Source of the DNA: Actinomycetota bacterium
Lineage (GTDB): Bacteria > Actinomycetota > Actinomycetes > S36-B12 > UBA5976
Length of the DNA stretch: 36,468 nt
Direction of reading: 5' to 3'
NCBI GenBank assembly: GCA_947373075.1
Contig: CANBWF010000001.1
Location: forward strand, 1-36,468
Each line of letters opens with the position of its first letter. The first letter of the stretch is position 1. This document shows, piece after piece, positions 9,954-31,975 of this stretch. The notes under the pieces are model-generated. The model saw only the letters and a program-made list of their open reading frames with translations, made no database searches and was not told where the DNA came from. The position numbers and the translations under genes were made by a program.

Positions 9954-9999
9954 CGAACTTAAATAATTTTCTGTCAATACTTTTTCAGAAACTTTTTCG

Positions 10000-10055
10000 T
10001 GAAACCGCTTACAAGTTTGCGTGAAACCGCTTACACATTTATGAAACCGCTTACA
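10000..10055. promoter_or_regulatory. Three tandem LacI/GalR-type (cre-like) operator candidates, TGAAACCGCTTACA
   Basis: Identical 14-mers at 10000-10013, 10022-10035 and 10042-10055, with start spacing of 22 and 20 bp. Each fits the generic LacI-family/cre pattern TGWAANCGNTNWCA at every constrained position. They lie about 140-195 nt upstream of the 10194 start. Confidence 0.6.
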
Positions 10056-10193
10056 CGGAAATCGTTATAAAAATTCTGGCAATTTCTCAATACTTTCCTA
10101 TCGCTTTCTGCCTATAGTGAGGTTGCGGTTGATGGGTTTGCGAGTTATGCGCAAAATCAATTTGCATCAATTACGAACGGAAGGAAGCACATC

Positions 10194-12641
10194 GTGATTA
10201 CATCTAAGGCAATGGCTCGGAAAATCTTCGCGCCAATCCTTGCAACATTAATGGTTGCTGGTTTGTCAACAGGGCTGGCATCGCCGGCCAAGGCAGACGC
10301 GACAACAAAGCAAGTTGTTTTCCATTATCAATTTGATGGCAAGACAACATTCTCAGACACAAAAGGTCTTGAATTATATTTATGGGCTGGCGCTAACGGC
10401 GACTTCTACCCAAATGGCAATGACGCATACGGCAAGACTTTCACTTTCTCTGTGGATGCTGCTTCGAACTCACTTGGCGGTCTGTTCAAGTTCGGTTCGG
10501 ATTGGGATCACAAAGACAATGGCGGTGCAGCTGATCGCACTATCGCATTGAATGCTTCTGGCTCAACAGAACTATGGTTCCTTGGCAACACAACTGCGTC
10601 CTACTCGTCACTTGCTGATGCAGTAACTGCAGGCGGTGTAGCTGATGCTTACACATCAACTGGTACCGATCCAAACTATGACTGTGATGCAAATAACGTT
10701 TGTACCCCACATTTCGACGTTGTTTACCCAGCAAGCCAGCATGTAGTTATTCACTACCAGGATCCAGCAGCTACTAAGTTCTCTAGCTACAAGAACTGGG
10801 ATGTGTTCGTTTACTCAAACGGAAGCAACCATCCGAATGGTAACTACTTCAACGGATCAGATTCATTCGGTAAAGTTCTAGATTTGACTTTCACCGACAT
10901 GAGCAAAAATGCTTCTATCGGTGTCATCGTTCGTAAAACCAACTGGTCAGATCGTGCTGGTTGTGCAAGTTGTACTGGCGATTCTGGCGCTGATGGCAAG
11001 GGCGGAAACCGCGTGCTTACACTTAGCCTTTCATCAGGTGAAAATGAGTTCTGGATTGTACGCGGTGCTGACAATGAGCCTTACTACACATCACTTGCAG
11101 ATGCTCAGGCAGCTGGCGCAGTATCAGCTCCATGGGCTGAAGGCGCAGTAGACCCAGGCTATGGTTCAGATGGTCTTCCAGTTGCTGGCTACCCAGCAAA
11201 TCAGACCTTCACCATTCACTACAACCGCGCAGATGGCAATTACGGCGACTGGAACATCTGGATGTGGGGAACCGGTACAGCTCTTGACACAGGTCATGAC
11301 TTCACTGGAACAGACGCATACGGTGTTTACACAACACTTGAAGTTCCTGGTGATAATGATTCACTAGTGAGTGGTTTCGGCTACTTGCTTCGCAGCACCC
11401 ATGACTGGTCAAATGCAAGCAAGAACACCAACGACAACTGGGGTAACCAGATTGCTATTGACAACGTCTCAATTCCTGATGGCGGCAAGACCTCTGGTCT
11501 TACTGAAGTTTGGGTAAAGCAGGGCGATGCAACAAGCTACACCTCTAACCCATTCCCAGTTCCACATGTTGGCGCTGTTGCAGCATCTGCAGGCTATGGC
11601 CAGGCAGTGGCAATTGCTGGTACAGGTCTAACCGGCGCTAGCAGCGTGAAACTAGTTCGTGCTGCTGTCCCAGCTGTTACTGCGACCAAGGTTGGAAATG
11701 CTTGGAAGTGTGGATCAACCACACGTTCACAGGGTTACGTATGTACTGCTGCTGTTCCAGCCGCTACTGCAACTGCAGCCGCGAAGGTAGTTTCAGCAAC
11801 CAAGATTGTTGCTGCATTCCCTAACTCAGGTGCAATTACCGGCAAGATTGTGGTTTCAAACCCAGCGGGTACTTCAACATCTGCGGGATCACTAGCACTA
11901 AAAGCAACGAAGTCTGCTCCAAAGATCAGCACTTCCACTGCTAAGGGTGTAATTGGCGACACAGTAACAGTCACTGGTACCAACGTTGGTGCAGCAACTG
12001 GAGTCAAGCTAGGCACTTTGGACATCAGCGACTTCGCTGTGACCGATGTGAACAGCCTCACCTTCGTTGTTCCTGCTGGTGCAACCGATAGCAAGATCTC
12101 GGTTACTACTGCTGCTGGAACTGCAACTGCTGCTAAGGCATTCGCACTTGTACCTTCGATTTCTTCTGTATCTTCATCAGCAGCAATCGGCGGAACAGTA
12201 ACTGTCACAGGCGTTAACTTGGGCGCTGCATCTGCAGTTAAGTTGGGCACAAAGGCAATCACAGGTTTCACCAAGGGTGCAACCTCGATTAGCTTCACCG
12301 TTCCAACTGGCTCAGTAACCGGAACCGTAACCGTAACAACTCCTGGTGGAGTAGTTACCAGCGCGGATTCAGTGACTGTTATCCAGAAGCCAACCGTTAC
12401 ATCTGTAACTGGTGCAAAGACTGGTACTAAGTTCAACAAGGGTGCAACCCTAACGATTACTGGAGCTAACCTCTCAGGCGCAACTAGCGTTTTGATTGGT
12501 GCTTCAGCGGTCACTGGATTCACCGTTGTAGACAGCACACACATCACATTCACTGCGCCTACCAACAAAGTTGGCAAAGTAAGCGTGATCACCCCAGGTG
12601 GAACCGGTACATCTAGTGCGACGATTACGACCACTAGCTAA
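10194..12641 (+). CDS. Secreted 815-aa non-catalytic surface protein with three PUD/CBM41-like modules and four IPT/TIG-like repeats (cassette A)
   Basis: GTG start 6 nt after a GGAAGGAAG RBS. Signal peptide ends in ASPAKA/DA. Module starts VVFHYQFDG, VVIHYQDPAATKFSSYKNWDVFVY and FTIHYNRADGNYGDWNIWMWG, each ending (E/V)(L/F/V)W(F/I/V)..G....Y(S/T)S. The C-terminal half is made of K-rich Ig-like repeats. Colinear paralog at 24058. Confidence 0.85.
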   Translation: MITSKAMARKIFAPILATLMVAGLSTGLASPAKADATTKQVVFHYQFDGKTTFSDTKGLELYLWAGANGDFYPNGNDAYGKTFTFSVDAASNSLGGLFKFGSDWDHKDNGGAADRTIALNASGSTELWFLGNTTASYSSLADAVTAGGVADAYTSTGTDPNYDCDANNVCTPHFDVVYPASQHVVIHYQDPAATKFSSYKNWDVFVYSNGSNHPNGNYFNGSDSFGKVLDLTFTDMSKNASIGVIVRKTNWSDRAGCASCTGDSGADGKGGNRVLTLSLSSGENEFWIVRGADNEPYYTSLADAQAAGAVSAPWAEGAVDPGYGSDGLPVAGYPANQTFTIHYNRADGNYGDWNIWMWGTGTALDTGHDFTGTDAYGVYTTLEVPGDNDSLVSGFGYLLRSTHDWSNASKNTNDNWGNQIAIDNVSIPDGGKTSGLTEVWVKQGDATSYTSNPFPVPHVGAVAASAGYGQAVAIAGTGLTGASSVKLVRAAVPAVTATKVGNAWKCGSTTRSQGYVCTAAVPAATATAAAKVVSATKIVAAFPNSGAITGKIVVSNPAGTSTSAGSLALKATKSAPKISTSTAKGVIGDTVTVTGTNVGAATGVKLGTLDISDFAVTDVNSLTFVVPAGATDSKISVTTAAGTATAAKAFALVPSISSVSSSAAIGGTVTVTGVNLGAASAVKLGTKAITGFTKGATSISFTVPTGSVTGTVTVTTPGGVVTSADSVTVIQKPTVTSVTGAKTGTKFNKGATLTITGANLSGATSVLIGASAVTGFTVVDSTHITFTAPTNKVGKVSVITPGGTGTSSATITTTS

Positions 12642-12673
12642 TAAACCGGCCCACTAGGGCAAACAACTAGAGG

Positions 12674-12705
12674 CTGGGGTCTGTGACATTCGTTGCAGAC
12701 CCCAG
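12674..12705 (+). terminator. 10-bp GC-rich hairpin after the surface-protein gene (attenuator or partial terminator candidate)
   Basis: ctggggtctg (12674-12683) pairs with cagaccccag (12696-12705) around a 12-nt loop. Flanking ctag segments extend the pairing. There is only a weak T-tract downstream. Confidence 0.4.
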
Positions 12706-12875
12706 CACTAGATGTTTAAAGAGCAAGTTGCAATATCACAATGTTTGAAAAATGTAAGGACTGGAAATAATTTTCCATAGCGGCAAATATCTTGATCGGA
12801 TTTTGTTGGAAGCTGTCAGATTCGACAGCGGAGAGTTTTAAATAGGAGCATGACTCCGGAACAGGAAAGTTAATC

Positions 12876-14288
12876 ATGACGGGATACGTAGTTCAGGCTC
12901 GCAAAGCTTTGATCGCTGTTGTATCACTAGGGCTACTCACAGCTGGTGTGATTACAGCTCCAGCTAAGGCTGACACCCCTGCACGTAATCTAACAATCCA
13001 CTACTACCGTTCTTCGGTGGATGCCAATGGCACTGCTGATAACGGCTTCTGCGAAACAGATCCGTGTGGAGTTTATGCCGGTTGGAACATGTGGGTTTGG
13101 AATACTGGCGCAACTCCAGATCCAAACGGCACCGATGGTTTACAGTTTGATTCAACCGATAAGTATGGAGTAAAGGCGACCTTCGCTGTCGGCAATGCCG
13201 CTACAAACGTTGGATTCCTTGTCCGCATCGGAACTAACTGGTCTTGGGCTAAAGCCGATATTCCGGATGATCGTTTCATCGCGCTAAAGGCAACGGGAGA
13301 TACAGAAGTTTGGGTTAAGCAGGGAGATCCAGTCGTTTACACCTCAAACCCAAATGATCGCGTACTTCGTATTCATTACAACCGCGCGGACAACAAGTAC
13401 ACCGGTTGGGACATCAAAACGCAGGAAATCAATGCTGCCGACGATAAGGCCATACCTTTCTCGACCACGAATGATTGCTTCGGTCGTGTAGCGATGATCC
13501 AGGTGCCTGAAATTTCACAGTTAACTCAGGACTACATTTTGCGAAAAGGTGGAAATGCAGCGACCCTTAAGTCACGTAAATTTACCGCAACGCTCAGTGA
13601 TAAGAAATACACGGATGTCTGGTTGAATGCGAGTCTTTTCATGGGTGAAGACATCACCGTCGACGACGGGCCTGACACGTTCCTTGATATGAGTCAACAG
13701 GCGCAGAATCCAAATGGGAATTTGGTTGTAGTTCATTACAGTCGTCCTATTCAAGATTTCAATGGTTGGTCAATGACCACTATTGCTGATGGCATCAAAC
13801 ATCCGTTCACTGCAGTTGATCCAGGATTTGGCCGACTAGGTTGTGCTTATGTAACAGATAGAGCTGCCACATCTTCGATAGTCAAGATTACAAATGGTTC
13901 AAAGGTTGACTTAGGCTTTGGTGAAAATCCAGGCGGACTCGGTGGGCAACGCACAATTGCGATTGCTGGCTCAGTTACTGAAGTTTGGTTAAAGCAGGGT
14001 TACCCGACCGTATGGACAAAGCAGCAAGCACCAGATCCAGCCATTCAAAGCGGGCAAACCGTTAAGGGCGTTGTTAGCAGTCTTAAGCGTGGGAAATCTG
14101 TAGCTTTGCCTGTCAATACAAGTGCAAAGCTGAAAATCTCATGGTTCGTGCTTACCCCATTTAATTGCAAAATTAAATCTGGCAAGTTAATTGCTAAAGA
14201 CCCAGGAACCTGCAAATTAAATGCAACTCAAAAGGGAAATGTCGCCTTTATGGTTTTCACGGCCCAGTACAGAATAACTATCAAATAA
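12876..14288 (+). CDS. Secreted 470-aa multi-PUD/CBM41-like accessory protein with a basic C-terminal Ig-like domain (cassette A)
   Basis: Signal peptide ends in TAPAKA/DT. Module signatures LTIHYYRSS...GWNMWVW...EVWVKQGDPVVYTSNP, LRIHYNRADNKYTGWDI and VVVHYSRPIQDFNGWSM...EVWLKQG. The K-rich tail carries a Cys pair (FNCKIKSGKLIAKDPGTCKL). Paralog at 26727. Confidence 0.8.
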   Translation: MTGYVVQARKALIAVVSLGLLTAGVITAPAKADTPARNLTIHYYRSSVDANGTADNGFCETDPCGVYAGWNMWVWNTGATPDPNGTDGLQFDSTDKYGVKATFAVGNAATNVGFLVRIGTNWSWAKADIPDDRFIALKATGDTEVWVKQGDPVVYTSNPNDRVLRIHYNRADNKYTGWDIKTQEINAADDKAIPFSTTNDCFGRVAMIQVPEISQLTQDYILRKGGNAATLKSRKFTATLSDKKYTDVWLNASLFMGEDITVDDGPDTFLDMSQQAQNPNGNLVVVHYSRPIQDFNGWSMTTIADGIKHPFTAVDPGFGRLGCAYVTDRAATSSIVKITNGSKVDLGFGENPGGLGGQRTIAIAGSVTEVWLKQGYPTVWTKQQAPDPAIQSGQTVKGVVSSLKRGKSVALPVNTSAKLKISWFVLTPFNCKIKSGKLIAKDPGTCKLNATQKGNVAFMVFTAQYRITIK

Positions 14289-14351: not shown

Positions 14352-15560
14352 ATGAAGAGCAAGAAAAACGGTTTCATCGGAGCCGCTCTGGCAAGCCTTG
14401 TGATTGCCACTATGTTCGGCGCTCCTGCTGCACATGCAACCCCAACGACAATCACAATTTGGACTGACCTTAATCGGGCCAGCGCATTCCAGGCGTGGGC
14501 GCGTACTTACAACCGTAACCATCCGTTGGTTGTAGTTAATGTTGTGGGTAAAGATGGAGCCAAGGACAAACTAGCGACAGTAGCTGATGGTGATGCACCT
14601 GATCTTATTGTTGGCGCGCACGACTGGATCGGTCCGCTAAAAGCACAGGGAATGATCCTGCCAGTAACTCTTGCTAATGCAAGTCAGTTTGCAGAAAGAG
14701 ATAAGGCAGCATTCAATCTAAAAGGCGCAACATATGGCGTGCCAATGACTGTAGAAAATGTTGCTTTGTTCACCAACATGAATTTGGTTCGTAAAGTGCC
14801 AAAAACTTTCGCAGAATTCGAAGCTGATTCAAAGGCTTTCCTAAAGAAGCATACGAAGGCTAAATTTGCTCTCGCTGTAGCTCCTGGCGATGCGTATCAC
14901 ATGTACCCGTTCTTCTCCGGACTAGGTGGCTACATCTTTGGTGGCACTTCAGGTAACTGGAATGTGCATGACTTGGGTATTGCAAACCGGACGTTTCTTA
15001 AGAATGCTCCACTTATCGACAAGTGGTACGCGGAGAAACTGATCAATGCGAATGTCACCGGCGATACAGCTCTGGCAGCATTCACCAGTAACAACGCTCC
15101 ATTTATGATTACCGGACCTTGGAACCTAGACAAGATTCGCTTGAAGAACATCAACTACGAAATTTCAAGTGTTCCGACAATCATCAAGGGCATCAAGCCA
15201 GTTCCGTTCTACGGAGTTCAAGGCGTAATGATGACAAAGTGGGCAGGCCCAGGCAAGCACAACATTAAATTGAAAGTTAATGGAGTTCTTGCGGACTTAA
15301 CAACTAAGCCGACTCAGCTATTGATCGCAAATCAGACCATTCGTACACCGGCTAATCTGCAGGCTCGCGCGAAGTTCAAGGATGTAGATAGTGCTGCGTT
15401 CTTGGCTGCAGGACAAGGTGCGATCACCATGCCACAGATCCTTGAAATGGGCGCAGTTTGGACACCAGTTGCAAATGCCTGGGGTCAAGTAAAAGCTAAA
15501 AAGCATGCTGTAGATCGTTTCAAGGCTGCCAAATCGACTGTGTCGAAGGCAATCAAGTAA
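14352..15560 (+). CDS. malE: MalE-like maltose/maltodextrin-binding protein (CUT1 solute-binding protein), cassette A
   Basis: I prefer the ATG at 14352, because the GGAGGG RBS at 14342-14347 lies inside the tracked 14340 ORF and the paralog at 28212 has the same RBS-to-ATG geometry. Signal peptide ends in APAAHA/TP. MalE-like ITIWTD, DAPDLIVGAHDWIGPLKAQG and ITGPWN. Confidence 0.85.
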   Translation: MKSKKNGFIGAALASLVIATMFGAPAAHATPTTITIWTDLNRASAFQAWARTYNRNHPLVVVNVVGKDGAKDKLATVADGDAPDLIVGAHDWIGPLKAQGMILPVTLANASQFAERDKAAFNLKGATYGVPMTVENVALFTNMNLVRKVPKTFAEFEADSKAFLKKHTKAKFALAVAPGDAYHMYPFFSGLGGYIFGGTSGNWNVHDLGIANRTFLKNAPLIDKWYAEKLINANVTGDTALAAFTSNNAPFMITGPWNLDKIRLKNINYEISSVPTIIKGIKPVPFYGVQGVMMTKWAGPGKHNIKLKVNGVLADLTTKPTQLLIANQTIRTPANLQARAKFKDVDSAAFLAAGQGAITMPQILEMGAVWTPVANAWGQVKAKKHAVDRFKAAKSTVSKAIK

Positions 15561-15590
15561 ATAGCAATAACTGAGACTCTTGGCTCAAAA

Positions 15591-15631
15591 CAGAATGTGT
15601 GGCAACTGAAATTTAGTTGCCACACATTCTG
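15591..15631 (+). promoter_or_regulatory. Perfect 17-bp hairpin in the malE-malF intergenic region
   Basis: cagaatgtgtggcaact (15591-15607) pairs with agttgccacacattctg (15615-15631) around a 7-nt loop. No U-tract follows. A hairpin sits at the same position in cassette B (29452-29497). Confidence 0.6.
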
Positions 15632-15673
15632 TGCAAGACAGGCAACATTCATTTTTGAAATTGGAGTGGTTTA

Positions 15674-17191
15674 GTGGTCGGGATTGTTTTCCGAATCTTA
15701 TTTCTCGGGCTGGTTGATTCCCTAGCCTTCTGGGCGGGTTCGCATCTTTTGGTCTCACGCAATTGGCTTGGCCTGGTCTGGCTATTAGTGGCAACCATCG
15801 CGATTAACTACGTTTACATTTCTAAGCGAGCCAGAGCTTCAAAGTGGTTGTTGCCTGGAACAATTCTGCTTATCGTATTCCAGATTTACCCGATTCTTTT
15901 TACTGCTACTGCAGCTTTCAGTAACTATTCAACAGCGCACTTTGTTTCTCGAAGCGAAGCTATCGATAACTTAGTGCAACAAAATATTCAGCAAGTGCCA
16001 GACAGTCCACAGTATTCAATCGTCCCAATTCACAATGGGGTAACTGTCGCTTTGGTAGTAACCGACCCAACTACAAACAAGGTTTATTTAGGTACCAAAG
16101 AGGCGCTAAAAGAAATTGCAAGTCCCAAGTTTGACGCGAATGGAATTCCGCAAGCTCCGGTGGGGTGGCGAGCATATTCTGAAGCCGAACTTAATACAGA
16201 TACGGTTCTAAACAATCTTTCAACACTCTTAGTACCTATGACTAAGCCAGAGGGCGCCTATCTAATGGTCAGCGACTTCACAACTGCATTCCAATTCGCT
16301 AGTGATGTGATTTATGACGCAAAGAAAGATCAGCTAATCCGACAATCTGATGGCTATGTATTCCCAGAGCGCGAGGGAGCTTTCATCGATTCTGATGGCA
16401 CTTCTCTTGATCCGGGCTGGCGCGTAAATGTTGGCTTTAAGAACTTCAAATCTGTACTAACCGATCCGGTAGTTCGGGGCCCATTCGTTCGCGTTCTAAT
16501 TTGGACTTTCGTTTACGCCGGTTTAACTGTATTAACCACATTTGTATTTGGCTTAACTCTGGCGTTGCTGCTGAACCACCCTGGGGTTAAGGGTCGCAAA
16601 CTATTGCGTTCCACGTTGATCATCCCTTATGCAATGCCTGGCTTCTTGTCTTTACTTATCTGGGCGGGTTTCCTCAATGATGACTTCGGTGTGATCAATA
16701 ATTTATTTAACTCGCACATCCCATGGTTGACTGATCCATTTTGGGCGAAGGTGTCAACAGTTTTGGTCAACCTTTGGCTTGGCTTCCCATACATGTTCTT
16801 GATCTGCACTGGTGCAATCCAGTCGATTCCGGCTGAATTAGCTGAAGCGGCCGAAGTTGATGGAGCTAAGCCACGGCAAATTTTGACGAAAATCAAAATG
16901 CCATTACTTCTTGTCACAGTTTCTCCATTGCTGATTGGATCTTTCGCCTATAACTTCAATAACTTCGGTGGTATTTATTTGTTGACTGGTGGTGGCCCGC
17001 CAGTAGCTGATTCTCAAATCGCTGGTGCGACCGACATTTTGATTTCTTACACATACAAATTGGCGATCGAAGCTGGACATGGAAATGACTATGGATTGGC
17101 TTGCGCCATTTCTATCTTGATCTTCTTCATCGTCGCGGGTGTTTCAACATTGTCGTTCACACGCACTCGCGCACTTGAGAACTTGAGCTAA
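15674..17191 (+). CDS. malF: MalF-type permease with a long extracytoplasmic (P2-like) loop, cassette A
   Basis: GTG start after a GGAG RBS. 505 aa. N-terminal TM helices are followed by a hydrophilic insert of about 180 aa. EAA motif ELAEAAEVDGAKPRQILTKIKMPLL. Confidence 0.9.
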   Translation: MVGIVFRILFLGLVDSLAFWAGSHLLVSRNWLGLVWLLVATIAINYVYISKRARASKWLLPGTILLIVFQIYPILFTATAAFSNYSTAHFVSRSEAIDNLVQQNIQQVPDSPQYSIVPIHNGVTVALVVTDPTTNKVYLGTKEALKEIASPKFDANGIPQAPVGWRAYSEAELNTDTVLNNLSTLLVPMTKPEGAYLMVSDFTTAFQFASDVIYDAKKDQLIRQSDGYVFPEREGAFIDSDGTSLDPGWRVNVGFKNFKSVLTDPVVRGPFVRVLIWTFVYAGLTVLTTFVFGLTLALLLNHPGVKGRKLLRSTLIIPYAMPGFLSLLIWAGFLNDDFGVINNLFNSHIPWLTDPFWAKVSTVLVNLWLGFPYMFLICTGAIQSIPAELAEAAEVDGAKPRQILTKIKMPLLLVTVSPLLIGSFAYNFNNFGGIYLLTGGGPPVADSQIAGATDILISYTYKLAIEAGHGNDYGLACAISILIFFIVAGVSTLSFTRTRALENLS

Positions 17192-17202
17192 GGGGACCAC
17201 TG

Positions 17203-18141
17203 ATGACTACTGATGTAATCGCAAAACCTACTCCAAGTGCACCGCGTAGGGCAGTTAAGAAGCGTAAGCCGTATCGTGGAAAGCTTTGGTGGCGCTATTT
17301 AGCAGCAGCGTTCGCTGTTGCCTTCGCGCTTGCCCCAATTGTTTATGTAGTACTAGCTGCCTGTAACCCAGCTGGAACGTTATCTACCCTAAATTTCTCA
17401 GTTCATGATTTTGGTTTGGATAACTTCCGCTTCCTATTAGGAAAGCATGACCTGAGCGCCGAAGTAACTTACGAAAATTATCCGTACCTACTGTGGTACC
17501 GAAATTCATTGATGGTTTCTTCAATCGCTGCGATTATGCAGGTAACTATTGGAACAGCTTCGGCTTATGCGTTTAGTCGCATCCATTTCAAGGGACGTCG
17601 GTTAAGCCTCGGTGGGCTGTTACTACTTCAGATGTTCCCCCAGATTCTCTCATTTATTGCACTGTTCCTAATCATGCAGAAAATCGGCGCTGTATTCCCA
17701 TTCATGGGCACTGGAACATGGGCGGGCTTAGTGCTTATTTACTTGGGTGGCGCAATGGGTTACAACACCTATTTGCTCAAGGGTTTCTTCGACACGATTC
17801 CACGTGAACTAGATGAAGCAGCAACTGTTGATGGGGCTAGTGCGAATCAGATTTTCTTCAAAATCATTCTTCCGCTTGCCACGCCAATGCTCGCGGTTGT
17901 CATGCTGCTTGCGTTTATCGGCCTAATGAATGACTTCATTCTGGCCAGTATCTTCCTGACTAAGTCGGATCAGATGACATTGGCTGTGGGCTTGCGGTCC
18001 TTTATTTCAGGTCGCTACGAGTCAAGCTGGGGTGTTTTCGCGGCCGGAGCGTTGATGGCGGCCCTACCAGTTGTTATCTTGTTCCAGGTTTTGCAGCGTT
18101 ACATCGTTGAAGGTTTGTCAGCTGGCTCGGTTAAAGGTTAA
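17203..18141 (+). CDS. malG: MalG-type permease, cassette A
   Basis: 312 aa. GGGGA RBS. ELDEAATVDGASANQIFFKIILPLATP. C-terminal QRYIVEGLSAGSVKG. Confidence 0.9.
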   Translation: MTTDVIAKPTPSAPRRAVKKRKPYRGKLWWRYLAAAFAVAFALAPIVYVVLAACNPAGTLSTLNFSVHDFGLDNFRFLLGKHDLSAEVTYENYPYLLWYRNSLMVSSIAAIMQVTIGTASAYAFSRIHFKGRRLSLGGLLLLQMFPQILSFIALFLIMQKIGAVFPFMGTGTWAGLVLIYLGGAMGYNTYLLKGFFDTIPRELDEAATVDGASANQIFFKIILPLATPMLAVVMLLAFIGLMNDFILASIFLTKSDQMTLAVGLRSFISGRYESSWGVFAAGALMAALPVVILFQVLQRYIVEGLSAGSVKG

Positions 18142-21331: not shown

Positions 21332-21335
21332 CTGA

Positions 21336-23938: not shown

Positions 23939-24057
23939 AAAAATCTCCTGATTCGCTGTAAACGAGACGATGAGCGTGTTAATGTGGCTCGAGAATAGGA
24001 CATATTCATTCTGAACATGGGTCCTATCCACCAAATGTAAGGAAGGAAATCACTAGC

Positions 24058-26508
24058 ATGAAAACATCATCAACCTCGATGCACAAAATTTTTGCATCAG
24101 TCGTAACCTTGCTTCTGGCAGTCGGTGCTGCGTCGGGGGTTATTGCTCCCGCTCAGGCCACTTCCGCAAGCCAAACGGTTATCGTTCACTACCAAGACCC
24201 AGCAGCTACCGGATTCGATAGCTACAAGGATTGGGCTCTTTATGTTTATGGCCCTGCTTCGTATGGTTGGGGCAAGACGGAATACTTCAACGGCTCCGAC
24301 ACCTTCGGTAAAGTTTGGACTCAGACATTTGATGCATCTGAGACAAGTGTTACGGTCATCGTGAAAGACAGTGCTTGGCGCGCTAAGGGCTGTGCAAATT
24401 GCATCGGTATGGGTGGGGCAGATCGCCCGATTACTCTCGATGCAAGCGGTACCACCGAGGTTTGGGTTGTAGCTGGTTCTGATTCCACTTACACAACAAC
24501 AGCTCCGGCTGGTGCAGCAACGGCACCATGGGCAGCGAATGCGGTAGACCCGTACTTCACCTGTGATGGCAACAATGTTTGTACCCCTATTCCGACAATG
24601 CCTAGCACTCAAAAATTGATTGTTCACTACAACGACCCAGCAGCAACTAGTTTCAAGTCATACCGCGGTTGGGATGTTTACACCTACGGATCTGGCAATG
24701 CGAACTTCAACGATGGGCATTGGTTCAATGGCTCCGATGATTTCGGCAAGGTTCTCACAGCCGATTTGACGAATACTGAAACGGTCTTAAACCTCAGCCT
24801 GATCATTCGTAAGACTGACTGGTCTGCAAGCGCTACTTGTGATGCTTGCGGCGGTATGGGAAAATCAGATCGCACGATTGATTTAGATGCCGATGGCACG
24901 ACTGAGATCTGGATTACGCGTGGCAGCAATGATGGGCTATATGCTACATCTAAGCCAGCATCATTCACAGCGTCTAGTTGGGCTGCGAACGCAACTGATC
25001 CTTACTACTCATGCTCTTCTGATTCGACTCCTGTATGTACCCTGAACCCTGCCTTCCCGGCAACTCAGAAATTCATTATTCACTACAACCGTCCAGGAAA
25101 TGATTACGCAGGATGGAATATGTGGATGTGGGGATTCCCTGACGGTGCACAGAATGGCCAGCGCTACTTCACCGGTGAAGATAGCTACGGCAAGATCACC
25201 ACAATAAATTACTCAGGTAATGCAGGAACAGTCAGCGGTATGAGCTTCCTCATGCGTAGTACCGAAGATTGGAGCAATGCATCGGTCGACCTGAATGGCG
25301 TTGCTATCGCTGGCCTTGAGAGTGCTGAAGGCGCAACTGGTACGACAGAAGTATGGTTCAAGCAGGGAGATAGCACTGTTTACACTGCTAATCCATTCAA
25401 GACCCCAACTGTCACTGCTGTATCTGCCACTACTGGTGGACCAGGTGCTGCAATCACAATCACTGGTACCAACTTTGACGATGTGAACAAGGTGACTTTG
25501 GAACGCGCAGCTGTGCCTGCCGTAACTGCTTCACCTGCATCAACGACGTACTCTGGTCCAAATAAAACTGGAACAAAGACGATTCACGCAGCTATTAAAG
25601 CAGTAGCAGCAGTATCAGCAGCAACCGTTAATGCATCATTCAAGGTTGTTTCTTCAACTAAGATTGTTGCAGCGATGCCAGCTGGTGTTGCTGCAGTGAC
25701 TGGAAAGGTAACTGTAGCGAACCCGACATTCTCGGGTAAGTCATCAGCTAACTTCACTTCAAAGACAGCTGCAGCTAAGCCACTCATCGCAACATCGACG
25801 GCCAATGGGCTTGTTGGTGGAGTTGTGACTGTTACAGGCGCGAATGTCGGCGCTGCAACTTCAGCCAAGATTGGCACACTTGATGTTGGCTCAATCACTG
25901 TATTAGCCGCAGATTCAATCTCATTCGTAGTACCTGCTGGTACTTCTGATGGAAAGATTTCTGTGACAACTGCTGGTGGTACAAAAGTAGCTACTAAAGC
26001 ATTTGCTCTAGTCCCATCAATCACATCGCTGTCTAAGACTTCAGTCGCTATCGGCGGAAGTGTGACAGTGACTGGTGTGAATTTGGCTGCTGTTTCTTCA
26101 GTCAAGATTGGTACCAAGGCTGTTACTGGTTTCACCAAGGGTGCAACCACAGTAACCTTCACGGTTCCTGCAGCAACTGCTTCAGGCAAGGTAACACTTG
26201 TATCAGCAGGTGGCACTGTAATCAGTGTTGACACTTTGTCGATCATTCCTGCTCCAACAGTAACCGGTCTAACTGGTGCTAAGACAGGAACTAAATTCAA
26301 CAAGGGCGCAACCCTGACGATTGCTGGTAGCAATCTAACTGGTGCAACAGCCGTGCGAATTGGTGCGAATTCAATCACCGGCTATGTAGTGGCTAATGAT
26401 GGCAAATCCATCACATTCACTGCACCGACAAACAAGACTGGCAAGATCAGCGTTGAGACCCCTGGTGGTACCGCTATTTCGTCAGCTACTTACACGACTA
26501 CTAGCTAG
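24058..26508 (+). CDS. Secreted 816-aa non-catalytic surface protein with three PUD/CBM41-like modules and four IPT/TIG-like repeats (cassette B)
   Basis: GGAAGGAA RBS. Signal peptide ends in IAPAQA/TS. Module starts VIVHYQDPAATGFDSYKDWALYVY, LIVHYNDPAATSFKSYRGWDVYTY and FIIHYNRPGNDYAGWNMWMWG. The C-terminal IPT repeats are nearly colinear with 10194-12641, and both proteins end in SSAT(I/Y)TTTS. Confidence 0.85.
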   Translation: MKTSSTSMHKIFASVVTLLLAVGAASGVIAPAQATSASQTVIVHYQDPAATGFDSYKDWALYVYGPASYGWGKTEYFNGSDTFGKVWTQTFDASETSVTVIVKDSAWRAKGCANCIGMGGADRPITLDASGTTEVWVVAGSDSTYTTTAPAGAATAPWAANAVDPYFTCDGNNVCTPIPTMPSTQKLIVHYNDPAATSFKSYRGWDVYTYGSGNANFNDGHWFNGSDDFGKVLTADLTNTETVLNLSLIIRKTDWSASATCDACGGMGKSDRTIDLDADGTTEIWITRGSNDGLYATSKPASFTASSWAANATDPYYSCSSDSTPVCTLNPAFPATQKFIIHYNRPGNDYAGWNMWMWGFPDGAQNGQRYFTGEDSYGKITTINYSGNAGTVSGMSFLMRSTEDWSNASVDLNGVAIAGLESAEGATGTTEVWFKQGDSTVYTANPFKTPTVTAVSATTGGPGAAITITGTNFDDVNKVTLERAAVPAVTASPASTTYSGPNKTGTKTIHAAIKAVAAVSAATVNASFKVVSSTKIVAAMPAGVAAVTGKVTVANPTFSGKSSANFTSKTAAAKPLIATSTANGLVGGVVTVTGANVGAATSAKIGTLDVGSITVLAADSISFVVPAGTSDGKISVTTAGGTKVATKAFALVPSITSLSKTSVAIGGSVTVTGVNLAAVSSVKIGTKAVTGFTKGATTVTFTVPAATASGKVTLVSAGGTVISVDTLSIIPAPTVTGLTGAKTGTKFNKGATLTIAGSNLTGATAVRIGANSITGYVVANDGKSITFTAPTNKTGKISVETPGGTAISSATYTTTS

Positions 26509-26726: not shown

Positions 26727-28151
26727 ATGAATGCACACATAATACGGGTGAAAAAAATCCTTATTGCCGTTATGTTGCTTGGGCTGTCTACCGCCGGTGT
26801 GATCTTTAGCCCGGCTCAAGGTGCCACAGCGCCAAGGCATATCACAATTCATTATTACCGCGCCACATTGAATAGTTTGGCAACCGTGGCTAACGGGGTC
26901 TGTGCAGCTGATCCTTGCGGAAAGTATGATGGCTGGAACTTCTGGGTGTGGGGAGCAGCACTATCTGGGTACTCTGGATCAACTGACGGTTTTTCCGCAG
27001 CTGTGCCCATTGATTCGATGGATAAATTCGGCGCTAAGGCTACTTTTGAAATTGGTAGCAGTTCAAATGATGTTGGTCTGCTTGCCCGTATAGGTAGCAA
27101 CTGGGCTTGGGCTAAGGCTGATATCACGGTCGAGCGGTACATCAAACCCAACCCAACAGGCGACACTGAAGTTTGGATCAAGGAAGGCGACCCCCTTCTC
27201 TACACCTCAAACCCCAATGATCGCGTGTTGCGTATTCACTACAATCGTTCCGACAATAAGTACAGCGGATGGGATATTCAGACCCAAGAGTCAAACCCTA
27301 CTGATAACAAGGCCGTAGCATTTTCCACAAGAAATGATTGCTTTGGTCGAGTCGCTACTATCCAGGTTCCGGAAATTTCGCAGTCAACTCAGGATTACAT
27401 CTTGCGCAAAGGTGGCAACTCTGGAACCTTGAAGTCTCACGTATTCACTGCCAATTTAAATGAAAGCAAATACACAGATGTATGGCTCAATGCCAATCTC
27501 TTCTTAGGCGAAGACACCACGATCGATGAAGGTGACAGTACTTTTCTTGATCTGAATCAGCAGGACCAGAATCCAAACGGGAATCTGGTTGTGGTGCATT
27601 ACAGTCGACCGTTGCAAGATTATTCCGGTTGGACCATGACTACTTTGGCTGATGGGATAAAACATAAGTTCACTGCCGTAGATCCGTTATTTGGCCGCCT
27701 TGGCTGTGCTTATGTGTTAGATCTGACAGCAACTACCTCAATTATCAAGGTAACGAATGGGTCTAAAGTGGACTTGACTTTTGGCGAGGCATCAACCGGT
27801 TTGGGCGGCCAGCGCACTTTACATTTGTCTGGAGTAATCACCGATGTATGGCTAAAGCAGGGACGCCGCGACATTTGGGATAAGGAACAGGAGCCCGATC
27901 CAGCGGTGAAGGCCTTCCAGAAAATTGGCAAAGTTGTGACGCACTTGAAGGTTGGAAAATCTGCTGCAATACCAATGAAGTCCAACGCAAATTTGAAGCT
28001 TTCTTGGTATGTGATCACCCCAGCAAATTGCAAGATTTCCGCTGGCAAGGTAATCGCGCGCAAACCTGGTACTTGCAAATTGGATGTGACCCAAGTCGGG
28101 AATGCCGCGTTTAATGCTTTCACTTTGCAATACAGAATCACAATCAGTTAA
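26727..28151 (+). CDS. Secreted multi-PUD/CBM41-like accessory protein (cassette B paralog of 12876-14288)
   Basis: I prefer the ATG at 26727 (MNAHIIRVKKILIAVMLLGLSTAG...). It gives a normal signal peptide that aligns with the N-terminus of the paralog. The tracked 26655 start adds 24 non-signal residues. Signatures ITIHYYRAT...GWNFWVWG, LRIHYNRSDNKYSGWDI, VVVHYSRPLQDYSGWTM. C-terminal ANCKISAGKVIARKPGTCKL. Confidence 0.8.
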   Translation: MNAHIIRVKKILIAVMLLGLSTAGVIFSPAQGATAPRHITIHYYRATLNSLATVANGVCAADPCGKYDGWNFWVWGAALSGYSGSTDGFSAAVPIDSMDKFGAKATFEIGSSSNDVGLLARIGSNWAWAKADITVERYIKPNPTGDTEVWIKEGDPLLYTSNPNDRVLRIHYNRSDNKYSGWDIQTQESNPTDNKAVAFSTRNDCFGRVATIQVPEISQSTQDYILRKGGNSGTLKSHVFTANLNESKYTDVWLNANLFLGEDTTIDEGDSTFLDLNQQDQNPNGNLVVVHYSRPLQDYSGWTMTTLADGIKHKFTAVDPLFGRLGCAYVLDLTATTSIIKVTNGSKVDLTFGEASTGLGGQRTLHLSGVITDVWLKQGRRDIWDKEQEPDPAVKAFQKIGKVVTHLKVGKSAAIPMKSNANLKLSWYVITPANCKISAGKVIARKPGTCKLDVTQVGNAAFNAFTLQYRITIS

Positions 28152-28211: not shown

Positions 28212-29423
28212 ATGAAAATCAAGAAATTTAGTGTTATTGGAGTGGCCGTAGCGAGCATGCTGAGTGCAGCTTCCATAGCGCCTCCAGCAGCTCAGGCGAG
28301 TGGCTCATTCGTAACTATGTGGGTTGCAAGTGATGTTGCAGGCGCCTATGCGACATGGGCGCAAGGGTATAACCGTACGCATCCCAGTGGGCGGGTCAAC
28401 GTTGTCGCAAAACCGGGATTTTCGGGCAAGGATTTATTGCAGACTGTGTCAGATTCTGATGCTCCAGATCTGATCACATCTAACCATGACGGCGTAGGGG
28501 TACTGAAAGCTCAGGGCTTTATCGTTCCATTAACGCTACCAAACGCGAGCCAGTTCTCTGCTGCAGATAAGACAGCATTTCAACTTAAGAAAATCAATTA
28601 TGGTATTCCGCTTAACATTCAAAATACTGCCTTCTTCACCAATTTAAACCTCGTTAAACGTGTGCCTAAGACTATGGCGGAGCTTGAAGCGGATTCGAAG
28701 GCTTTCTTGAAGAAGCACCCTAAGGCAAAATTCACCGTTGCTGTTCCACCCGAGGCATATCATATGTATCCATACTTCTCCGGACTTGGCGGATATATCT
28801 TCGGTGGGCAATCTGGAAATTGGAATGTGGGCGACGTCGGTATTGCCAACAAGAAATTCCTTAAGAATGCTCCCCTAATTGACAAATGGTATTCGGAGAA
28901 AATATTTAATCCAAACGTTTCTGGAGATTATGCTCTCGGTTCTTTCACAAACAATCAAGCGCCATACGCGATCACTGGCCCATGGAATATTAACAAAATT
29001 CGTTTCAAGCATATGAATTATGAAATTTCTAGTATCCCAGCACTTAATCTTGGTTTCAAGACTGTGCCGTTCGTCACTGCTGTCGGAGTATGCCTGACCA
29101 AATGGGCGAACCCAGCAAAACATAATGTGCAGCTCAAAGCAAATGCAATTTTGGCAGACTTAGCCAGCCCTAAGACGCAGTTGTTGCTGAGCAACGCCAT
29201 CGCAGCAAGTCCAGCGAACTTGGTTGCCAAAACTAAATTCAAGGATGTTGATGCGCGAGCCTTTGCAGCAGCAGGGAAGGGAGGCGTATACATGCCGAAC
29301 AACCTAGAGATGGCCGGAGTCTGGACGCCGCTAACAAGCGCTTGGAATCAGGTTAAGTCAAATAAGTATGCCGTCAACCGGTTCAAGACTGCATCAGCAA
29401 CTATCAAGGCAATGATCAACTAA
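28212..29423 (+). CDS. malE: MalE-like solute-binding protein, cassette B
   Basis: GGAGGG RBS. Signal peptide ends in PPAAQA/SG. Colinear with 14352-15560 (DAPDLI, ITGPWN, AYHMYP(F/Y)FSGLGGYIFGG). Confidence 0.85.
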   Translation: MKIKKFSVIGVAVASMLSAASIAPPAAQASGSFVTMWVASDVAGAYATWAQGYNRTHPSGRVNVVAKPGFSGKDLLQTVSDSDAPDLITSNHDGVGVLKAQGFIVPLTLPNASQFSAADKTAFQLKKINYGIPLNIQNTAFFTNLNLVKRVPKTMAELEADSKAFLKKHPKAKFTVAVPPEAYHMYPYFSGLGGYIFGGQSGNWNVGDVGIANKKFLKNAPLIDKWYSEKIFNPNVSGDYALGSFTNNQAPYAITGPWNINKIRFKHMNYEISSIPALNLGFKTVPFVTAVGVCLTKWANPAKHNVQLKANAILADLASPKTQLLLSNAIAASPANLVAKTKFKDVDARAFAAAGKGGVYMPNNLEMAGVWTPLTSAWNQVKSNKYAVNRFKTASATIKAMIN

Positions 29424-29451
29424 CTAAGAAGAACTGAGCAATCATGCTCAA

Positions 29452-29497: not shown

Positions 29498-29536
29498 CCA
29501 TAAATGTTGTGACTATTCTGAAAGTGGAGTGTTTTA

Positions 29537-31030
29537 GTGATTGGGATTGTCTTCCGAATTTGTTTTCTAGGTCTAGTGGATTCACTGGCGTTTTGGGCAG
29601 GCTCACATTTACTAGTCTCAAGAAACTGGCTTGGTTTAGTCTGGCTTATTGCCGCTACCGCCACTATCAATTTTGTCTATATTTCTAAGCGGTCCAGGGC
29701 ATCCAAGTGGCTGTTGCCAGGCACTCTTCTCCTACTTATTTTTCAAATCTACCCGATACTTTTCACTGCAAGCGCAGCATTTAGCAACTACTCAACGGCG
29801 CACTTTGTTTCGCGTGATGAAGCAGCTTCAAATATTGTTTTGCAAAATATCCAACAGGTAGAGGGCAGCCCACAATATTCAATCGTTCCATTGCACAACG
29901 GGAACAATGTTGCACTTCTGGTTACAGACCCAAAAACAAAAAAGGTTTACCTAGGTTCAGAAACAGAATTTACTGAGATGGATAGTCCTAGTGCCCCAAC
30001 AGGCTGGAAGCCTTATACAGAAGAGCAGTTCTACGCTGATGCGGTTCAGGCCAAGCTAGGTAGTTTGCTAGTACCCATCCCTGAGCCAAAAGGGGCATAT
30101 CTAAAAGTTAATGATTTTTCTACTGCCTTCGCATTTGTCAGCGATGTAATTTATGACACCAATAGTGAAAAGCTGATTAGGGTCTCAGACCAATATGTTT
30201 TCCCCGAGAGGGAAGGTGCGTTCATCGATGAAGATGGTACAGCTTTGGATCCAGGTTGGCGGGTAAGTGTTGGTTTCAAGAACTTCAAGTCAGTTATTAC
30301 TGACCCGGTTGTTCGTGGACCATTCTTACGTGTGCTTATTTGGACTTTTGTATATGCAGCCCTCACTGTTTTGACTACATTCGCACTTGGCCTGACCCTG
30401 GCGCTTATTTTGAATCACACCCGGGTAAAGGGTAGAAAGTACTTACGCTCGGTGCTAATCATTCCTTATGCAGTGCCAGGTTTCTTGTCCCTTATGATTT
30501 GGGCTGGTCTACTGAATGATGATTTTGGCACAATAAATGCACTATTTCATTCGCACATACCTTGGCTTACCGATCCTGTGTGGGCTAAAGTTTCCACTTT
30601 GCTGGTCAATCTGTGGCTTGGCTTCCCTTACATGTTTCTGATTTGTACTGGCGCAATCCAATCCATCCCAGCTGAACTATCTGAAGCGGCTGAAGTTGAT
30701 GGCGCCAAGCCGAGACAAATCTTGATGAAAATCAAATTGCCGCTCCTACTGGTTACAGTTTCTCCACTCCTTATTGGCTCGTTTGCCTATAGTTTCAACA
30801 ACTTCGGTGGGATTTACTTGTTGACTGGTGGTGGGCCACCTGTGGCAGATTCTCAAATTGCAGGTGCGACAGATATTTTGATTTCGTACACATACAAGTT
30901 GGCTATGGAGGCAGGGCACGGAAATGACTACGGCTTGTCATGTGCTATCTCCATTCTTATATTCTTCATGGTTGCTGGAATAGCAACTTTGTCTTTCACT
31001 CGCACACGAGCACTCGAAAACTTGGGTTAA
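29537..31030 (+). CDS. malF: MalF-type permease, cassette B
   Basis: GTG start after GTGGAG. 497 aa. The first 93 residues differ from the 15674 paralog at 11 positions in my hand alignment. EAA motif ELSEAAEVDGAKPRQILMKIKLPLL. Confidence 0.9.
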   Translation: MIGIVFRICFLGLVDSLAFWAGSHLLVSRNWLGLVWLIAATATINFVYISKRSRASKWLLPGTLLLLIFQIYPILFTASAAFSNYSTAHFVSRDEAASNIVLQNIQQVEGSPQYSIVPLHNGNNVALLVTDPKTKKVYLGSETEFTEMDSPSAPTGWKPYTEEQFYADAVQAKLGSLLVPIPEPKGAYLKVNDFSTAFAFVSDVIYDTNSEKLIRVSDQYVFPEREGAFIDEDGTALDPGWRVSVGFKNFKSVITDPVVRGPFLRVLIWTFVYAALTVLTTFALGLTLALILNHTRVKGRKYLRSVLIIPYAVPGFLSLMIWAGLLNDDFGTINALFHSHIPWLTDPVWAKVSTLLVNLWLGFPYMFLICTGAIQSIPAELSEAAEVDGAKPRQILMKIKLPLLLVTVSPLLIGSFAYSFNNFGGIYLLTGGGPPVADSQIAGATDILISYTYKLAMEAGHGNDYGLSCAISILIFFMVAGIATLSFTRTRALENLG

Positions 31031-31042
31031 GGGGAACAACAG

Positions 31043-31975
31043 ATGACTACAGAAACAATATCCACATCTAAAGCAGGTTCACCTAGGAAAAGGAAGAATC
31101 AGCTTCAGCGCGGTACGGTTTGGTGGCGTTACATCGTCGCCGCCATAACCATCCTCTTCGCAATTTCGCCAGTGGTGTACATCATCATTGCTGCCTGCAA
31201 CCCTGAAGGAACGCTAACAACGTTTAACTTCTCAATTCATAGTTTCGGTTTGGACAATTTCCGATTTCTTTTTGGCCGTCATGACCTTAGTAGCGATGTG
31301 ACCTATCAGGCTTACCCATACATGCTTTGGTATCGCAACTCGTTGATGGTATCCCTACTTGCGGCAACACTTCAGGTCATAGTTGCAACCGCTGCCGCAT
31401 ACGCATTTAGCCGGTTGCATTTCAAGGGACGCCGACTTAGCCTTGGTGCTCTTTTGCTACTTCAGTTATTTCCTTCAGTTCTAGCCTTTGTGTCACTTTT
31501 CCTCATTATGCAAAAAATCGGAGCCGTGTTCCCATTCGTGGGACCGGGCACATGGGCTGGCCTGATCCTCATTTATCTTGGCGGGTCACTAGGTATTAAC
31601 ACTTATTTGTTGAAGGGGTTCTTCGATACCATTCCTAGAGAACTCGATGAAGCCGCAACTGTTGATGGGGCAAGTGCTAATCAGATTTTTATGAAAATTA
31701 TCCTTCCGTTAGCAGCTCCGATGCTTGCAGTCGTGATGCTGCTCGCATTTATTGGATTGATGAACGAATTCCTGTTTGCCAGCATTTTTCTTACTAGGTC
31801 CGATCAAATGACGTTGGCAGTAGGTTTGCGATCCTTAATCAATGGAAGATATGCACAGAACTGGGGAATTTTTTCTGCGGGAGCCATATTGGCAGGGCTG
31901 CCAATGGTGATCATGTTTCAACTTTTGCAACGTTTCATTGTTGAGGGCTTGGCGGCTGGCTCAGTTAAGGGCTAG
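31043..31975 (+). CDS. malG: MalG-type permease, cassette B
   Basis: 310 aa. GGGGA RBS. ELDEAATVDGASANQIFMKIILPLAAP. C-terminal QRFIVEGLAAGSVKG. Confidence 0.9.
   Translation: MTTETISTSKAGSPRKRKNQLQRGTVWWRYIVAAITILFAISPVVYIIIAACNPEGTLTTFNFSIHSFGLDNFRFLFGRHDLSSDVTYQAYPYMLWYRNSLMVSLLAATLQVIVATAAAYAFSRLHFKGRRLSLGALLLLQLFPSVLAFVSLFLIMQKIGAVFPFVGPGTWAGLILIYLGGSLGINTYLLKGFFDTIPRELDEAATVDGASANQIFMKIILPLAAPMLAVVMLLAFIGLMNEFLFASIFLTRSDQMTLAVGLRSLINGRYAQNWGIFSAGAILAGLPMVIMFQLLQRFIVEGLAAGSVKG

Follow-up and report, generated by a model that had tools for sequence, protein, structure and literature searches.

We describe here a 36,468-nt stretch of DNA (hereafter the window) from an Actinomycetota bacterium (assembly GCA_947373075.1, contig CANBWF010000001.1) that we read as the core of a large locus for the utilisation of alpha-glucans (glycogen, starch, pullulan). 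In our reading secreted, enzyme-free proteins with family 41 carbohydrate-binding modules (CBM41) would capture glucan chains for dedicated MalEFG importers, and the second of two paralogous cassettes would have entered by insertion; we put the probability of this reading as a whole at roughly 0.7. The general theme of alpha-glucan capture and MalEFG import, proposed in an initial annotation made from the DNA letters, is borne out by domain and family matches.

The genes and elements of the window are given below with the evidence for each; a + marks those placed on the + strand. S and A denote the capture proteins, E, F and G the MalE-, MalF- and MalG-type importer components, and the digit the importer or cassette; HMM stands for hidden Markov model, AF2 for AlphaFold2 and GH13 for glycoside hydrolase family 13.

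3..902, +, F0, MalF-type permease of importer 0, truncated where the window begins (Pfam BPD_transp_1)
912..1871, +, G0, MalG-type permease of importer 0 (Pfam BPD_transp_1)
2084..5968, +, S0, secreted non-catalytic CBM41/TIG protein of 1294 aa (Pfam PUD, TIG x9)
6016..7854, +, AmyA, cytoplasmic GH13 enzyme, MalZ/cyclomaltodextrinase-like, without signal peptide (Pfam Alpha-amylase)
7851..9953, +, AmyB, secreted GH13 alpha-amylase whose C-terminal tail is basic (Pfam Alpha-amylase; signal sequence at the N-terminus)
10000..10055, +, LacI/cre-like pseudo-palindrome TGAAACCGCTTACA upstream of S1, in three exact copies (motif count)
10194..12641, +, S1, secreted, three CBM41 modules and four Ig-like/TIG domains, 815 aa (Pfam, HMM, AF2)
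12642..12720, +, stem-loop 3' of S1, no U-tract (RNAfold -44.8 kcal/mol for 79 nt)
12876..14288, +, A1, secreted, three CBM41-fold modules and a basic Ig-like C-terminal domain, 470 aa (Pfam, HMM, AF2)
14352..15560, +, E1, MalE-family solute-binding protein without lipobox, 402 aa (Pfam SBP_bac_1/8)
15561..15650, +, 20-bp stem-loop between malE1 and malF1 (-36 kcal/mol)
15674..17191, +, F1, MalF-type permease with P2 loop, 505 aa (TM_PBP2_N, BPD_transp_1)
17203..18141, +, G1, MalG-type permease, 312 aa (BPD_transp_1; MalG profile)
18203..21127, +, secreted type I pullulanase (CBM41-CBM48-GH13), 974 aa (TIGR02104, Pfam)
~21140-21190, +, intrinsic terminator after the pullulanase gene (hairpin then U-tract)
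21260..21332, +, tRNA-Thr(CGT) (ARAGORN)
21324..21550, +, repeats with partial copies of the tRNA 3' end, att-like scars (repeat families D1 and D3)
21822..22370, +, MarR-family regulator (Pfam MarR; likely start 21930, giving 146 aa)
22553-23701, GDSL-family hydrolase, 382 aa, no obvious signal peptide, between the MarR gene and cassette 2
23868..23939, +, three copies, 29 bp apart, of the palindrome GTTACCRYGGTAAC upstream of S2 (motif count against shuffles)
24058..26508, +, S2, paralog of S1, 816 aa (Pfam, identity, HMM, BLASTP)
26509-26600, stem-loop after S2, no U-tract (-50 kcal/mol)
26727..28151, +, A2, paralog of A1, 474 aa (Pfam, identity, HMM)
28212..29423, +, E2, MalE-family binding protein with altered pocket, 403 aa (Pfam SBP_bac_8)
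29424-29510, stem-loop after malE2 and before F2, no U-tract (-35 kcal/mol)
29537..31030, +, F2, MalF-type permease, 497 aa (TM_PBP2_N, BPD_transp_1)
31043..31975, +, G2, MalG-type permease, 310 aa (BPD_transp_1)
32100-35257, 787-aa protein with a polysaccharide pyruvyl transferase domain, then a YkuD L,D-transpeptidase, directly after cassette 2 (Pfam)

The locus reaches beyond the window. To the left, as followed through identical proteins onto contigs L010 and L011 (contigs and loci used for comparison carry L numbers), lie genes for a 2933-aa PUD/TIG protein and a second pullulanase of 1271 aa (PUD-CBM48-GH13), which occupy positions 1-7078 of L010, followed by E0 and the full 513-aa F0; since these genes stand upstream of E0-F0-G0, the locus extends past the left end of the window and exceeds 45 kb. 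It holds three MalEFG sets, two pullulanases, AmyB, AmyA, four CBM41-TIG proteins and two CBM41-only proteins. Polysaccharide-degrading enzymes (pullulanase, AmyB and AmyA) are co-located with carbohydrate transporters (the three MalEFG sets), as in a Gram-positive polysaccharide utilisation locus (PUL), which unites enzyme, transporter and regulator; with respect to a regulator, the window has a MarR gene and two kinds of operator-like arrays. The pullulanase of the window matches TIGR02104 with 692 bits (cut-off 504.5), and the best NCBIfam matches of AmyA are maltodextrin glucosidase and cyclomaltodextrinase, both under cut-off. The alignment of F1 to the E. coli MalF equivalog covers positions 19-516 of 520 and includes the P2 loop (360 bits, cut-off 392), and that of G1 to the MalG profile covers 2-296 of 296 (244 bits, cut-off 261); the MalE, MalF and MalG matches all fall slightly under the E. 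coli equivalog cut-offs. The native (non-fusion) PDB entries closest to E1 and E2 are Thermotoga maritima MalE1/MalE2 (to MalE1, E = 4e-40 for E1 and 1e-29 for E2). The third malFG pair and larger CBM41 protein reported at the left are present as F0/G0 and S0, with F0 56% identical to F1 and G0 51-53% identical to G1 and G2.

Five proteins of the window, S0, S1, S2, A1 and A2, consist only of CBM41 modules and Ig-like domains. As had been anticipated, Pfam places PUD (PF03714) above its gathering score in all five and TIG in S0, S1 and S2; PUD scores against a cut-off of 25 bits are 68 (S0), 111.5 (S1), 113 (A1), 137 (S2) and 85 (A2), with 73 for the pullulanase. An iterative HMM search resolves 15 PUD modules, three in each of S1, S2, A1 and A2, two in S0 and one in the pullulanase, and S0 carries at least nine TIG domains (nine stretches in Pfam). 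The AF2 models of S1 and A1 (predicted local distance difference test score, pLDDT, 83 and 80) are strings of beta-sandwich domains; S comprises three CBM41 and four Ig-like domains and A three CBM41-fold modules and one Ig-like C-terminal domain. That the five proteins have no catalytic domain is upheld by Pfam, which finds none, and by the S1 and A1 models, which hide none. Foldseek matches the A1 model at probability 1.0 to 2ya1, 2j43, 2j44, 2j71/2j72 and 6az5, the CBM41 modules of SpuA, Streptococcus pyogenes PulA, T. maritima PulA and Eubacterium rectale Amy13K, with a TM-score of 0.62-0.79 when normalised to the single-module targets (2j71/2j72, 6az5). The best PDB matches of the S1 model are the surface glycan-binding proteins B (SGBP-B) of the Bacteroides ovatus xyloglucan and mixed-linkage glucan PULs, which the S1 sequence also matches over its TIG region.

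The modules are not all alike where ligand would be expected to bind. In an alignment of the 15 modules with TmCBM41, the aromatic pair at positions i and i+2 of the solved modules (W-x-W in TmCBM41 and S. pyogenes module 1, W-x-F in S. pyogenes module 2) is kept as W-x-W in module 3 of S1 and S2, module 1 of A1 and A2, module 1 of S0 and the pullulanase. Modules 1 and 2 of S1 and S2 carry other aromatics (Y/F-x-Y/W), and modules 2 and 3 of the A proteins have lost the pair (K-x-Q, T-x-I). The assignment of CBM41 to all five proteins stands by Pfam, and the binding capacity it implied was overstated for these two A modules. W356/W358 of S module 3 are invariant or nearly so across the S family and W73/W75 of A module 1 invariant across the A family.

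These features suggest a mechanism. S would be an elongated protein, with three acidic CBM41 modules on a stalk of four TIG domains; its basic, conserved C-terminal half would be held on the anionic envelope, and the CBM41 head would point outward and capture alpha-glucan chains. The shorter A protein, in which one CBM41 is intact, the other two CBM41-fold modules are degenerate spacers and the Ig-like tail is very basic, would hold glucan nearer the membrane. Bound polymer would then be cut by the pullulanase and the basic-tailed AmyB, MalE would deliver maltooligosaccharides to MalFG for an import powered by an ATPase encoded elsewhere, and AmyA would complete the degradation in the cytoplasm.

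The linkage of capture proteins to the importer is conserved. The order S-A-E-F-G-pullulanase recurs in seven other loci, all metagenome contigs (L004/L005, L006, L007, L016, L017, L020 and L021; the L007 contig ends within G, so that a pullulanase gene would lie outside its sequence), whose S proteins share 45-77% identity with S1 or S2. This six-gene unit, within a locus of more than 45 kb, takes the place of the self-contained 8-kb cassette of the initial annotation. It is often preceded by an amyA homolog, which adjoins the cassette in L006, L007, L016 and L017; in L016, L017 and L021 it adjoins a gene for a GT4/GT5-type glycosyltransferase (glycogen-synthase-like), accompanied in L016 and L017 by a glgC-like nucleotidyltransferase gene. 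An AmyA (53% identical) is also encoded in L022, a more distant relative, where positions 4296-13896 of a 547-kb contig hold malE-F-G-amyA-amyB and a divergent GH13 gene; CBM41 and TIG genes are absent from this mal locus, which makes the capture proteins look like an addition specific to one lineage. The L022 arrangement is the probable ancestral state of cassette 0.

An alternative, which we hold to be possible if clearly the less probable, is that S, S0 and the giant CBM41-TIG proteins are mainly adhesins to glycogen- or starch-rich partners or particles (algae, cyanobacteria, detritus), with no direct part in supplying the transporter and with a linkage to malEFG that stems from co-regulation only. 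Such a role would suit their long Ig-like stalks: S0 has at least nine TIG domains, and the PUD/TIG protein encoded upstream measures 2933 aa. S is also the fastest-evolving gene and one that reassorts between cassettes, behaviour often seen in proteins exposed at the surface. In streptococci, CBM41 proteins take part in adhesion to host glycogen, and their structures (2j43, 2j44) are among those matched by A1. The retention of S-A-E-F-G-pullulanase in the seven other loci with short intergenic gaps speaks for the capture-import reading instead, and adhesion and substrate capture are compatible with each other.

Alternatively, S and A might be freely released glucan binders, or inactive relics of pullulanases whose catalytic domain has been lost, and in either case have no dedicated role. 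We regard this as improbable, although none of the known kinds of anchor motif is present in them, other metagenomic sequences encode multi-repeat proteins made of PUD alone, and some genes distantly like A lie away from transporters: multi-PUD proteins 28-32% identical to A stand alone in other Actinomycetota (L018 10001-11869 and L019 10001-11623), in a conserved housekeeping neighbourhood with no transporter nearby. Purifying selection on S and A is strong, the proportion of nonsynonymous differences (pN) being 0.23-0.35 against about 0.75 for synonymous ones (pS). Length and architecture are conserved across about 28 clusters (S) and about 35 (A), all metagenomic, and the W-x-W pair hardly varies; a planktonic cell, moreover, would lose a binder that diffuses freely.

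The earlier statement that the five CBM41 proteins have no known anchor agrees with motif scans and Pfam. Regular-expression and hydropathy scans found no lipobox, C-terminal LPXTG or C-terminal hydrophobic segment in S0, S1, S2, A1, A2, E1, E2, AmyB or the pullulanase, and sortase, SLH, lipoprotein and dockerin anchoring were rejected on the lack of any lipobox, LPXTG, SLH or dockerin match. An 'LPSTG' at residue 930 of the pullulanase was discarded as a sorting signal; it lies inside an all-beta domain and has no hydrophobic tail. Nor is there a lipobox cysteine in any of the eight MalE-type binding proteins of the lineage that were examined (E1, E2, L010 7121-8335 and those of L004, L006, L016, L020 and L022), all of which have AxA-type signal peptides with long hydrophobic cores; this raises the question of how the lineage keeps its binding proteins at the cell.

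The secreted non-catalytic proteins and AmyB do share a marked charge polarity, with acidic N-terminal CBM parts against basic C-termini. The net charge of the last 90 aa is +15 in S0 (isoelectric point 12), +13 in A1, +9 in A2 and +5 in both S1 and S2, and reaches +12 in AmyB. We infer from this pattern that S and A may be retained non-covalently on anionic wall polymers through their basic C-terminal domains. In other Gram-positives pyruvylated wall polymers anchor SLH proteins, and a link between the retention of these domains and the pyruvyl transferase-domain gene that follows cassette 2 (whose 787-aa product has no NCBIfam match) is speculative. A bolder proposal, which we consider doubtful, is that S and A form a previously undescribed class of Gram-positive SGBP, with a new basic TIG/Ig-like anchor on an anionic, possibly pyruvylated wall polymer, hand-over of glucan to the cognate MalE-MalF(P2), and an exchangeable S that serves as a specificity or phage-evasion cassette. 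If true, this would be a monoderm analogue proper of Sus in a very abundant group of freshwater bacteria.

The likeness to the logic of the Bacteroidetes Sus systems, noted earlier, holds as a functional analogy, SGBP-B being the best Foldseek match of the S1 model. Like Bacteroides SusE/SusF and the SGBP-B of the B. ovatus xyloglucan and mixed-linkage glucan utilisation loci (XyGUL, 5e7g; MLGUL, 6e57), S is non-catalytic and elongated, combines glycan-binding modules with an Ig-like stalk, and is encoded beside its cognate importer and enzymes. Unlike Sus, the locus has no match to the SusC/SusD Pfam families in its open reading frames of at least 150 aa, there is no outer membrane, and S, A and E have no lipobox cysteine and hence no lipoprotein anchor; the polarity is the reverse of that of SGBP-B, with the binding modules N-terminal and the stalk C-terminal, and the parts are canonical CBM41 modules and MalEFG ABC import. 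The locus works like the Sus SGBPs, yet is not a member of Sus.

Comparison can be made with three further systems. The amylosome of Ruminococcus bromii includes Sas6 and Sas20, secreted non-catalytic starch binders that cooperate with GH13 amylases and pullulanases (PMC9112005; PMC10826348). These too are enzyme-free starch-binding proteins secreted by a Gram-positive, but they use CBM26/CBM74 or novel domains and dockerin-cohesin assembly, whereas no dockerin or cohesin Pfam match was found here and the genes would form an operon with an importer. SpuA of S. pneumoniae, PulA of S. pyogenes and T. maritima and Amy13K of E. rectale share the CBM41 fold, the putative W-x-W platform and what would be surface capture of alpha-glucan; their CBM41 is appended to GH13 and the Gram-positive ones are LPXTG-anchored, neither of which is true of S or A. 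The MalEFG(K) systems of E. coli and actinobacteria likewise have a MalE-family protein, a MalF with P2 loop, a MalG and a malE-malF stem-loop; unlike them, the present locus has no ATPase gene, its binding proteins lack a lipobox, and three paralogous importer sets are flanked by CBM41 proteins.

All of the parts therefore belong to known families, and what appears to be undescribed is the combination of enzyme-free CBM41-TIG and CBM41-only proteins with MalEFG and pullulanase, and their basic C-termini. The suggestion that this architecture is uncharacterised agrees with full-text literature searches, which returned no published characterisation, no residue-level CBM41 data and no characterised non-catalytic CBM41 proteins; CBM41 in Planktophila and Luna-1 genomes receives only passing mention in surveys (PMC12817590; PMC12422013).

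The two five-gene blocks at 10194-18141 and 24058-31975 are colinear, and their open reading frames match the coordinates and sizes given in the initial annotation. Global identity between cassettes 1 and 2 is 49.7% for S, 63.6% for A, 59.6% for MalE, 80.7% for MalF and 72.9% for MalG (S1 against S2 by BLASTP, 616 bits, E = 0). The uneven divergence reported earlier is confirmed by pN values of 0.35 (S), 0.23 (A), 0.26 (E), 0.13 (F) and 0.16 (G). It also runs within genes: the last 150 aa of the MalF copies are 90-94% identical and the external P2 loop (aa 101-200) 48-66%, and the C-terminal TIG domains of the S copies are 58-76% identical against 32-49% for the CBM part. The first 93 residues of MalF differ at 12 positions, not the 11 counted before. 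Many synonymous changes do underlie the conserved permeases, pS being 0.73-0.81 in every gene pair, a saturation at which no numerical dN/dS between the cassettes could be obtained. Recent gene conversion between the MalF copies was ruled out, pS being 0.64-0.87 along the entire gene. The saturated pS thus indicates an old split between the cassettes, followed by purifying selection and no recent gene conversion.

Several observations support the view that the cassettes have since specialised. Upstream of S1, TGAAACCGCTTACA occurs in three exact copies within 56 bp (six other matches have three mismatches each), and related sites precede the S1 orthologs in L002, L006, L007 and L009, with a similar pair, TGAAAGCGCATTCA and TGAATGCGCTTTCA, in L004. 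The GTTACCRYGGTAAC pattern found upstream of S2 has 13 matches against 2.2 expected, a count reached by none of 100 shuffles, and its sites are conserved in L001 and L012-L015. Since the operator-like arrays upstream of S1 and S2 differ, the two cassettes would now be separately regulated. The MarR gene shares a segment with cassette 2.

The binding proteins point the same way. When aligned to E. coli maltose-binding protein, in which the DxPDxI..HD segment is unambiguous, and compared at what we take to be its ligand positions, E0, E1 and the L022-type protein share a pocket with R or K at 15, A63, D65, W66, E111, D153, Y155, W230 and W340. Five of these positions are changed in E2 and the L020 protein, to V at 15, N at 63, G or V at 66, Q at 111 and E at 153. 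Judging from these residues, cassettes 1 and 2 probably import different alpha-glucan-derived oligosaccharides.

Within each cassette, very stable stem-loops follow the S and malE genes at equivalent positions, with differing sequences and no U-tracts. They are likely transcript-stabilising or attenuating elements; the intergenic region between malE and malF of E. coli is known to hold a stem-loop that sets an expression ratio, and by analogy those after S and malE probably set the ratio of expression within the operon.

We think it more likely that cassette 2 entered a variable region linked to a tRNA than that it arose by tandem duplication, though this is not proven. The tRNA-Thr(CGT) gene lies 132 bp past the pullulanase gene of cassette 1, and the same tRNA follows the pullulanase gene in L004 and L006, where nucleotide homology to the window ends at the tRNA 3' end. 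Beyond the tRNA, L006 has a CHAD gene, L004 has Sbt_1 and MarR genes, and the window has MarR, GDSL, cassette 2, pyruvyl transferase and L,D-transpeptidase genes. A 56-nt direct repeat (21324-21379 and 21401-21456) and partial copies of the tRNA 3' end (21388-21412 and 21526-21550) follow the tRNA, and the same motif occurs after the tRNA in L006, so that the region looks like a putative integration hot spot.

Gene histories are in keeping with this. Neighbour-joining places S2 with the S genes of L016, L017, L020 and L021, whereas the remaining genes of L016, L017 and L021 (A, E, F, G and the pullulanase) belong to the cassette-1 type; for A, E, F and G the sister of cassette 2 is L020, which carries the sole cassette seen in its lineage and is the nearest sampled relative of cassette 2. 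We conclude, without regarding it as proven, that the S gene has probably been exchanged between cassettes and has a history different from that of A, E, F and G.

The initial annotation had proposed an old duplication followed by substrate specialisation, and of this the ancient divergence under purifying selection stands and the in-place duplication has become doubtful, in view of the tRNA-Thr and the gene trees. A tandem duplication in place of an ancestral S-A-E-F-G, with divergence and loss of one cassette in the single-cassette relatives, would account for two colinear cassettes on the same strand only 6 kb apart, for MalF copies that are 81% identical, and for trees of A, F and G in which cassette 2 and L020 are sister to cassette 1 and L007 and do not fall outside all orthologs. 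It fits poorly with the att-like scars beside a tRNA-Thr that stands between the copies and at which the homology to L004 and L006 stops, and with the ~1.3 kb beyond the tRNA in each of these two loci, which holds unrelated genes and no second cassette. Cassette 2, furthermore, has no pullulanase gene, although its closest relative L020 has one, and S2 groups with S genes whose companions are of cassette-1 or intermediate type. We therefore consider such a duplication rather unlikely and prefer insertion of cassette 2 at the tRNA.

Several points weigh against our overall reading. With regard to import, no ATPase gene (ABC_tran open reading frame) occurs in the window, nor within 10 kb to either side in related loci; actinobacteria usually rely on a shared ATPase whose gene lies at another site. 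With regard to regulation, the window holds no LacI-family gene, and scans for promoter and terminator consensus sequences yielded fewer sites than did shuffled sequence and were set aside, the terminator and stem-loops having been found by direct folding of the intergenic regions. As to capture, we infer glucan binding by the S and A proteins by homology only; that the W-x-W pair is the ligand platform, stacking on alpha-1,4-glucan, is our assumption, drawn from the TmCBM41 and SpuA structures and from its conservation here. As to retention, the basic tails are suggestive only, and an uncleaved signal peptide could serve as a membrane anchor instead. Finally, as to insertion, no integrase was seen near the tRNA-linked segment, the right-hand border is undefined (the CHAD gene beyond it shares only 34% identity with its L006 counterpart), and the trees carry no support values and place cassette 2 on a long branch.

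The host is a low-GC freshwater actinomycete related to the Nanopelagicaceae. The window has a GC content of 47%, near-identical proteins come from lake metagenomes and from metagenome-assembled genomes (MAGs) labelled 'Actinomycetes/Actinobacteria bacterium', a close relative carries genes of the locus on a 1.02-Mb contig, and the nearest named relatives of AmyA are in Ca. Nanopelagicaceae MAGs (55-63% identity). A survey of classical Actinobacteria, for such a host, would miss the locus. A scan of genome contigs with two narrow peptide patterns, which is no proof of rarity, found an S homolog in only one species representative (MAG ELA390), and a Bifidobacterium TIG protein that it also returned proved unrelated to S. 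A phmmer search of 1.84 billion representatives with the triple-CBM41 region gave six proteins at E <= 1e-30, a lower bound, phmmer being weak on so short and divergent a module.

Relatives of the Nanopelagicales rank with the most abundant bacteria of fresh water and tend to be described as streamlined scavengers of small molecules. For such an organism a locus of more than 45 kb for polymeric alpha-glucan, with dedicated capture proteins, would be a large investment, and it suggests that glycogen or starch released from algae and cyanobacteria is a carbon source of importance. The locus would represent a Gram-positive counterpart to the Sus paradigm made from CBM41 and TIG domains, and its parts lend themselves to testing, among them the binding modules, the two operator types, a pair of binding proteins whose pockets differ and a candidate new mode of wall retention.

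We note a few smaller points on individual genes. Three start sites were chosen from gene calls on identical contigs and homolog alignments: for A2 the ATG at 26727 (474 aa) is favoured over the mechanical open reading frame from GTG 26655 (498 aa), for E1 the ATG at 14352 (402 aa) over that from 14340 (406 aa), and for MarR the start follows the 146-aa gene call in L012 as compared to the mechanical start at 21822. A role for the GDSL hydrolase in an alpha-glucan locus is a matter of possibility, a deacylating esterase being one candidate. The stop codon of amyA and the start of amyB overlap by 4 nt (7851-7854), which suggests translational coupling of the cytoplasmic and the secreted GH13 enzyme.

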